Source: a virus. Taken from it: DNA of 7,146 bases. The position numbers were made by a program, and so were the translations under genes. Of the stretch, positions 6,892 to 7,016 are shown piece after piece. Every line of letters starts with the position of its first letter. The first letter of the stretch is position 1. Location of the stretch: the IMG/VR virus record IMGVR_UViG_3300028901_000183; one strand, written 5' to 3'. Under the pieces are notes generated by a model that searched no databases, was not told the origin of the DNA, and saw only the letters and a list, made by a program, of their open reading frames with translations.

Positions 6892-6927
6892 AAAAAAAGG
6901 CCCCCTTGGCAGGAGACCAAGGGGGCC
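6892..6927 (-). terminator. Canonical rho-independent terminator (minus strand) abutting the dif-like hairpin
   Basis: Minus strand: GGCCCCCTTGG-tctcctg-CCAAGGGGGCC-TTTTTTT, an 11-bp stem (6927-6917 / 6909-6899) with a T7 run (plus-strand A-run 6892-6898). On the plus strand it lacks a U-tract, so it is essentially unidirectional. Confidence 0.8.
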
Positions 6928-7016
6928 GCGCATAATGCGCCTTATGCATAAAGGGCCGGGGGGATTGCGATTGTCCCCCCGGCCCTTTCTACATAAGGCC
7001 GCTTGCATTATGCGCG
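6927..7016. other. ~90-nt near-perfect hairpin carrying a dif-like XerC/XerD site. Candidate attP; the alternative is a packaging-signal hairpin.
   Basis: Hand-folded structure:
- 12 bp (6927-6938 : 7005-7016)
- 5-nt bulge (7000-7004)
- 8 bp (6939-6946 : 6992-6999)
- 3x3 internal loop
- 15 bp (6950-6964 : 6974-6988)
- 9-nt loop

The left arm reads GCCGCGCATAA-TGCGCC-TTATGCATAAA (6925-6952). The E. coli dif, recalled from memory, is GGTGCGCATAA-TGTATA-TTATGTTAAAT. Confidence 0.6.

Follow-up and report, generated by a model that had tools for sequence, protein, structure and literature searches.

Hijacking of the host recombinases XerC and XerD by a single-stranded DNA hairpin has been established experimentally essentially for one phage, CTXphi, and has only been predicted for a few enterobacterial phages. 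CTXphi carries two attachment sites whose central regions measure 12 nt (attP1) and 6-7 nt (attP2). They lie inverted about 90 nt apart and pair with each other in the (+) strand; a single strand pair is exchanged, by XerC alone, and compatibility with a target depends on a few base pairs beside the XerC cut (PMC3089051). After integration, a new dif is present together with two dead sites (PMC3089051; PMC3442271). The CTXphi site is masked in duplex DNA, which makes integration irreversible, and new phage DNA is made by rolling-circle replication from tandem prophages (PMC3442271; PMC6744903). For CUS-1phi of E. coli and Ypfphi of Yersinia pestis, direct single-strand integration at dif has been predicted in review (PMC3089051). 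By comparison, IMEXs of the VGJphi and TLCphi types use a duplex attP, with Xer activation factors (XafV, and XafT with DUF3653) beside it (PMC6744903). Here we describe an environmental inovirus in which positions 6925-7018 very probably constitute a CTXphi-type attachment site that exploits XerCD in its folded mode.

A filamentous phage genome without a detectable integrase

The window analysed here (the whole stretch of DNA, 7,146 nt; IMG/VR record IMGVR_UViG_3300028901_000183) is a circular inovirus contig of 7005 nt whose ends overlap by 141 nt (1-141 = 7006-7146, 100% identical); owing to this terminal overlap, the right arm of the hairpin described below is present twice in window numbering (also at 1-13). 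The filamentous gene set found in the window comprises Zot, Phage_CRI/G2P_X_C, a coat-like protein and a pIII-like protein:

829-1998, minus strand: Zot/pI (Pfam/PHROG search)
2367-3917, minus strand: pIII-like protein with Gly-Thr repeats
4026-4256, minus strand: coat-like protein
4452-4886, minus strand: 144-aa protein with a weak RstB-family match
5360-6445, minus strand: rolling-circle replication initiator, pII/RstA-like (Phage_CRI and G2P_X_C), marking the gene strand and the module common with relatives, in which it is 57-71% identical
6461-6793, plus strand: divergent, repressor-like HTH regulator of 110 aa between attP/ori and the replication gene (PHROG 4441 and 638)

No integrase, transposase, recombinase, resolvase or DUF3653 domain was detected in window ORFs of at least 100 aa (Pfam, E <= 0.01 for DUF3653), in agreement with an earlier, sequence-only reading of this DNA that had listed no integrase. 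The HTH regulator at 6461-6793 had no match to DUF3653 or to any other Pfam family (E <= 0.01). Because inovirus genes lie on the packaged strand, the minus strand of the window, which carries pII, the coat genes and Zot, is presumed to be the viral (+), packaged strand.

Megablast of the whole window against GenBank phages returned no match, exact look-up of the pII protein found no record, a Zot-based scan of IMG/VR found no match and an Rfam scan of the window found no family. Against the GenBank phage collection, pII had three matches only, the top one being phage I2-2 (41%). A wider pII search retrieved 15 IMG/VR contigs, 3 genomes and 43 metagenome contigs, with identities of 33-71%. The sole parts of the window with relatives among these retrieved loci were pII, the HTH gene, an origin-like element and the hairpin (5360-7018); the structural half (829-4886; Zot, pIII-like, coat) had none (tblastx, 1e-8), and the window Zot has just four distant relatives in the database. 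Because only one half of the genome is related to the retrieved loci, the window genome is, on sequence comparison, a mosaic of modules.

The intergenic stretch at 1-830 has a GC content of 64-67%, compared with about 54% phage-wide, and contains a 90-nt direct repeat (277-366 and 654-743, 91% identical), CGCGACCGGCGCGGCC-like 16-mers in three copies per genome and a palindrome pair (432-455 and 492-515). It gave no Pfam matches and has no counterpart in the relatives. Within the pIII-like gene, a long repeat with a 12-nt period (2833-3173) encodes (Gly-Thr)n and a second repeat (2662-2721) encodes (Asn-Gly)n, both of which are probably flexible linkers.

Two inverted dif-like sites pair in one hairpin

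The putative attachment site, its parts and the elements that duplicate or adjoin it are arranged as follows:

6925-7018, minus strand (phage-gene, presumed packaged strand): complete folded attachment site attP(+), a 94-nt hairpin, equivalent to the prophage left end in the integrated copy (contig L062) described below
6925-6952, plus strand: 28-mer dif mimic, GCCGCGCATAA TGCGCC TTATGCATAAA, which contributes the bottom strand when the site folds and is not itself exchanged
7008-7018, minus strand: putative XerC-binding arm of the exchanged top strand, GTCGCGCATAA, which after integration serves as the XerC arm of attR, the regenerated dif
6997-7007, minus strand: extended 11-nt central region of the top strand, TGCAAGCGGCC, in which TGC and GCC pair with the bottom strand and AAGCG (7004-7000) is the bulge
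7006-7010, minus strand: mapped crossover interval TAA/TG, with predicted XerC cleavage between 7008 and 7007
6986-6996, minus strand: XerD-like arm of the top strand, TTATGTAGAAA, kept in attL
6953-6985, unstranded: apical stem-loop joining the two half-sites, with its loop at 6965-6973
1-13, minus strand: duplicate of 7006-7018 (XerC arm), from the assembly overlap of the circular contig
6899-6927, minus strand: intrinsic-terminator-like hairpin plus T7 (12 pairs, 9 of them G-C; tail TTTTTTT), directly downstream of attP on the phage-gene strand

Our recount of the 28-mer agreed with the figures reported earlier: a 6-nt central region flanked by arms that match those of E. coli dif (GGTGCGCATAA TGTATA TTATGTTAAAT) at 9/11 and 7/11 positions. 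At such stringency the 28-mer occurs once in the window, compared with 1 of 300 shuffles and an expected count of 0.003. The inverted copy that had been described as partial is present and is fuller than that term implies, running on the minus strand from 7018 to 6986 as GTCGCGCATAA-TGCAAGCGGCC-TTATGTAGAAA, with an 11-nt spacer and with arms matching those of E. coli dif at 9/11 and 8/11 positions. The two copies have unequal central regions, of 11 nt versus 6 nt in the window and of 9-14 nt versus 6-7 nt in relatives. The 35-bp hairpin proposed in the sequence-only reading was recovered, with 12 + 8 + 15 = 35 pairs; its bulge spans 5 nt (7000-7004) and its loop 9 nt (6965-6973). Folding of 6900-7030 as DNA gave -54.1 kcal/mol for the plus strand and -57.1 kcal/mol for the minus strand (z = -10.2 and -11.4, respectively), and none of 200 shuffles folded as well.

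The same phage is integrated at a dif site

The window Zot is 100% identical to a database protein (P0001) known from eight contigs, including JGI contig Ga0310075_1604975 (L062; 19,438 nt). Window positions 1-7005 align to L062 7298-294 at 100% over 7005 nt, with other DNA on both sides. The free and integrated forms read:

attP, free phage, gene strand: ...caagcggc GTCGCGCATAA TGCAAGCGGCC TTATGTAGAAA gggccgg...
attL, L062 281-313: ...ctacactcta ATTTCGTGTAA TGCAAGCGGCC TTATGTAGAAA gggccgg...
attR, L062 7286-7313: ...caagcggc GTCGCGCATAA TGGGGG TTATGTAAAAT ataggcc...

The spacing between attL and attR is exactly 7005 nt. Because TAA/TG are the sole bases common to attP, attL and attR around the L062 junction, the crossover lies at window 7010-7006 on the minus strand, where the XerC arm of the long-spacer copy meets its central region. 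XerC cuts dif sites at this same position. The crossover had been expected earlier within TGCGCC of the 28-mer; it maps instead to 7008/7007, in the right-hand copy. The finding of the identical phage beside dif, with attL and attR readable and the crossover inside the hairpin, supports the original reading of this DNA as a XerCD-type attP, with dependence on XerCD suggested by analogy.

At the ends of the L062 prophage, attL is a hybrid with an 11-nt spacer, the 28-mer is internal and intact (unsplit at 347-374) and attR has 11 + 6 + 11 geometry; from this geometry, both left-hand sites, the attL hybrid and the 28-mer, appear to be non-functional. On the XerC side, the homology between the phage and host central regions in L062 amounts to only two bases (TG). 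The site that preceded integration can be reconstructed as ATTTCGTGTAA TGGGGG TTATGTAAAAT, and would have had a non-canonical XerC arm, ATTTCGTGTAA, with an insertion sequence adjoining it. L062 carries a single prophage copy of the window phage; CTXphi needs a tandem array for virion production.

Some of the target sequences are unusual, namely the presumed host XerC arm ATTTCGTGTAA (L062 281-291) and the central region TGGGGG (7297-7302), and in another integrated relative, L038, the attR central region is TCATAA (8623-8628). Integration in L062 swaps the odd XerC arm ATTTCGTGTAA for the more canonical phage arm GTCGCGCATAA.

An assembly chimera was ruled out as the source of L062. The phage and host junction sequences have only five bases in common, a second contig with the same neighbours as L062 was found, and an isolate genome (L018, below) has the same junction logic. 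In addition, L063, an independent circular assembly of the free phage from another sample, has the same circle broken at another point. Because L063 breaks this circle elsewhere, we treat the start of the window contig at 7006, two bases from the crossover, as a coincidence.

Related prophages exchange the long-spacer copy

The chromosome of Methylovulum miyakonense HT12 (L018) contains a related prophage, with attL ACTTCGCATAA-TTACCCGTTTACG-TTATGTAACAA at 7957, attR ACTTCGCATAA-TGCATA-TTATGTAAAAT at 15772 and an intact 28-mer at 8027-8054. In L014, which is 93-96% identical to this prophage, an uninterrupted phage junction joins the phage-side flank of attR to the attL hairpin, and comparison of L018 with L014 again puts the exchange on the XerC side. 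Six integrated relatives (L018, L016, L017, L022, L026 and L038) have the same layout, making seven cases with L062. The orientation was the same in 7/7, and in all seven the exchanged site was the long-spacer copy (6986-7018, minus strand, in the window), reading from XerC to XerD on the sense strand of pII and Zot. The 28-mer was unsplit and internal in the prophages with a recognisable one (L062, L018, L022 and L038). The sequence-only reading had regarded duplex and folded modes as both possible; with the long-spacer copy exchanged in 7/7 integrated cases and the 28-mer intact, the data fit only the folded mode.

The relatives also help to localise the exchange. The outermost three bases of the XerC arm in L026 are ATT at attL and GCT at attR, and the tandem relatives L008 and L030 likewise have GCT where one phage copy meets the next. 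This polymorphism puts the exchange to the right of the three positions. Tandem copies were found in L008 and L030, and L022, in which a phage-phage junction is followed by a terminal dif, is a tandem array. To the left of attL in L018 lie two phage-similar fragments, at 6359-6611 (75% over 253 nt) and 7878-7907 (30 nt), which may be what is left of an older element in an array near dif.

The target is a dif site of a methanotroph-like host

The XerD arm of attR in L062, TTATGTAAAAT, matches E. coli dif at 10/11 positions and the phage arm TTATGTAGAAA at 9/11, which bears out the likeness between phage site and host dif presupposed at the outset. The host genes after attR in L062 encode a multicopper oxidase, a radical SAM protein and others. 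Because one flanking gene is 71% identical to Methylocaldum proteins, the L062 host is probably a methane-oxidiser-like member of the Methylococcaceae. GGGNAGGG motifs point towards the integration site: the right flank of L062 has 0 forward and 5 reverse copies, and L018, L016 and L026 together have 8 forward and 0 reverse copies in their left flanks and 0 forward and 2 reverse copies in their right flanks. In L016, genes converge on the integration site. Judged by its sequence context, the integration target is a real chromosomal dif. A search for an empty dif in Methylocaldum, made via the flanking oxidoreductase gene, found that synteny stops short, with no dif within 10 kb. The central region of the Methylococcaceae dif is TGCATA, and that of the 28-mer likewise begins with TGC.

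At three independent loci, an insertion sequence abuts the XerC arm of dif:

L062 1-280; L027 1745-3100 and 7463-7843; L038/L013, left of attL: IS1202/ISNCY-family insertion sequence

The IS1202 family targets XerCD sites next to the XerC arm (PMC10132070; bioRxiv 10.1101/2022.12.17.520857), and the dif-adjoining insertion sequences observed here match this published dif-targeting. The element carries subterminal repeats, GGACATT(T/A)CTA, the last of which begins 29 nt before the XerC arm. In L027 the insertion sequence is itself split by a Tn3-family transposon.

Selection maintains both arm sequence and pairing

For the analysis of covariation, 23 distinct hairpins were aligned and pairs were counted on the proposed structure. 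Across these hairpins 93.2% of cells were paired, compared with 37-53% when partners were slid by 1-3 columns, and 0/500 shuffles reached the observed value on any measure. Two arm cores were invariant (23/23), namely CGCATAA on the XerC side and TTATGTA on the XerD-like side. The apical stem, the sequence of which itself varies, had compensatory changes in 10 of its 12 pairs, and the central-proximal helix flanking the bulge had them in 3/3. The first T of TTATG on the top strand was always T, with A as its partner in 12 hairpins and G in 11; on the bottom strand the 28-mer accordingly reads CTATG, not TTATG, in 11/23 relatives (pair 26-86), a T-G wobble in the fold. Because the arm cores are invariant, the stems covary and the 28-mer often has CTATG, selection, as read from this alignment, acts on the top-strand sequence and on pairing and not on the 28-mer as a duplex dif.

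These patterns bear on whether the hairpin is used in folded form at all. One alternative is that the duplex replicative form integrates, with XerCD or another host recombinase acting on the double-stranded long-spacer site (6986-7018) without folding. The junctions locate the exchange but say nothing about folding, and the long-spacer site exists in the duplex too. However, the arms of that site are 11 bp apart (9-14 bp in relatives), compared with the 6-bp central region of dif sites, and the partner copy and apical stem are kept by compensatory change, which a duplex long-spacer site would not need. The active site of CTXphi is, moreover, reportedly masked in double-stranded DNA (PMC3442271; PMC6744903). 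We therefore regard integration of the duplex form as improbable.

The chances are smaller still that the hairpin serves mainly as a terminator, packaging signal or complementary-strand origin, with an attachment role that is secondary or has been lost in the window phage. The hairpin occupies the main intergenic region and, in relatives, is followed directly by a T-run; in the window the terminator-like hairpin at 6899-6927 comes directly after it. The structural conservation of the hairpin could partly reflect a terminator role. Against this, the identical phage is integrated through exactly the 6925-7018 hairpin site, and the arm sequences, besides the shape, are invariant. The sequence-only reading had distinguished relatives that keep the arms from relatives that keep only the shape; both are kept, with the CGCATAA and TTATGTA cores, removing the alternative of a packaging signal only. 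A hairpin that is solely a terminator or packaging signal was rejected on the junctions and the invariant arms, and a role of this kind alongside attachment is possible and would not displace the attachment function. Least credible is exchange of the VGJphi type, in which the whole 28-mer (6925-6952) would serve as a duplex partner for dif: it is a full 11 + 6 + 11 site with a central region starting TGC, like the TGCATA of Methylococcaceae, but it is unsplit and internal in every prophage with a recognisable one (L062 347-374, L018 8027-8054, L022 and L038), on which ground it was rejected, and its XerD-side TTATG is CTATG in 11 of 23 relatives.

A proposed route of integration

In the preferred reading, the folded hairpin is the substrate. 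[quoted passage not shown] On the minus strand, the two inverted dif-like copies would fold back such that the stem of the 94-nt hairpin mimics one dif. In this folded site, the XerC arm (7018-7008) would be fully paired with 6925-6935, the central region would have both flanks paired and a 5-nt bulge on the top strand, and the XerD-like arm (6996-6986) would be mostly paired with 6942-6952. Host XerC and XerD would bind both the hairpin stem and the chromosomal dif, and XerC would swap one strand pair at 7008/7007, between the XerC arm and the central region, giving a pseudo-Holliday junction that replication or repair would convert into a prophage. The product at the left end would be a dead hybrid of the host XerC arm, the 11-nt phage spacer and the phage XerD-like arm, with the 28-mer left intact but masked just inside the prophage. 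At the right end, the phage XerC arm, the host central region and the host XerD arm would form a new working dif. Because the active site is absent once the DNA is duplex, XerCD should be unable to excise the prophage.

An origin-like element and small elements share the hairpin

A second conserved element lies between the HTH gene and the hairpin:

6826-6868, unstranded: conserved 43-nt non-coding element, with a covarying small hairpin (TACCA..TGGTA) followed by an invariant AAAGGACAGTACTAC in a second hairpin (AGGACAG/CTGTCCT)

This is the best-conserved DNA among the relatives (86-98% identity), including elements with pII only. It occurs in 24 distinct versions and was also found in L001-L034, L049-L052, L062 and L063. 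The stem of its small hairpin covaries (TACCA..TGGTA, TCTCA..TGAGA and others), and short duplications occur at TACTAC in L034 and L049. The element is a candidate pII nick site or replication origin.

The hairpin is also carried by a group of smaller elements:

L016 9446-12941; L017 1446-4836; L026 9466-12515; L008 3245-6256; L030 3339-6381: 3.0-3.5-kb elements

In these, the same hairpin is accompanied by the origin-like element and pII, and coat and assembly genes are absent; the L026 element, the ORFs of which were scanned, also encodes a gene-V-type ssDNA-binding protein and small ORFs. They lie at dif alone or in tandem, and one in L026 lies directly behind a different, Zot-encoding prophage. 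We tentatively propose, at somewhat less than even confidence, that the attP hairpin, the 43-nt origin-like element and pII form a portable integration-replication cassette, and that the small elements are helper-mobilised, RS1-like satellite IMEXs of methanotroph inoviruses.

Significance

The mechanism itself is already known, and no new one is revealed here; what is new is, very probably, the same solution in an unrelated inovirus lineage of environmental methanotrophs (Methylococcaceae). One phage is available in its free as well as its integrated form, and natural variants separate the sequence-constrained arm cores from the shape-constrained apical stem and central flanks. Variation among the relatives thereby offers material for defining the features that folded Xer substrates require. 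Methylovulum miyakonense HT12, with a related prophage in a sequenced chromosome, provides an experimental entry point. For annotation, dif-proximal inserts in Methylococcaceae are to be read as arrays of Xer-exploiting elements.

Comparison with known Xer-exploiting phages

Like IMEXs of the VGJphi and TLCphi types, the window phage has no integrase and appears to integrate at dif by means of host XerCD. Unlike in the VGJphi type, exchange does not occur at the duplex 28-mer, and in contrast to the TLCphi type, no DUF3653 protein was detected in the window (Pfam). CUS-1phi and Ypfphi are predicted precedents of the same mode outside Vibrio, with enterobacterial hosts, likened here by their description in review.

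The differences from CTXphi are those of sequence, dimensions and host. A sequence relationship between the two phages is not detectable, and the window Zot matches the CTXphi-type PHROG weakly. At 94 nt, the hairpin is shorter than that of CTXphi (about 150 nt), with sites 33 nt apart here and about 90 nt apart in CTXphi, and the central region here has both flanks paired and a one-sided bulge. The host here is a Methylococcaceae-like methanotroph, and there is no toxin cargo.

The likenesses to CTXphi extend from genome organization to the integrated products. Both are filamentous phages without an integrase, with modules in the same order (attP, divergent HTH, rolling-circle initiator, a weak RstB-like match in the window, coat genes and Zot). 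Both have a pair of inverted dif-like sites whose central regions differ in length, one long and the other short (11/6 nt here; 12/6-7 nt in CTXphi), a folded site on the gene-sense strand and exchange at the XerC side. The prophage flanks also agree: on the left lie a dead hybrid and a second, masked site, and on the right dif is regenerated. Tandem junctions are likewise shared, and occur here in relatives. At the level of sequence, the window phage thus has the gene set, inverted sites, unequal spacers, dif junctions and prophage flanks of a CTXphi-type phage.
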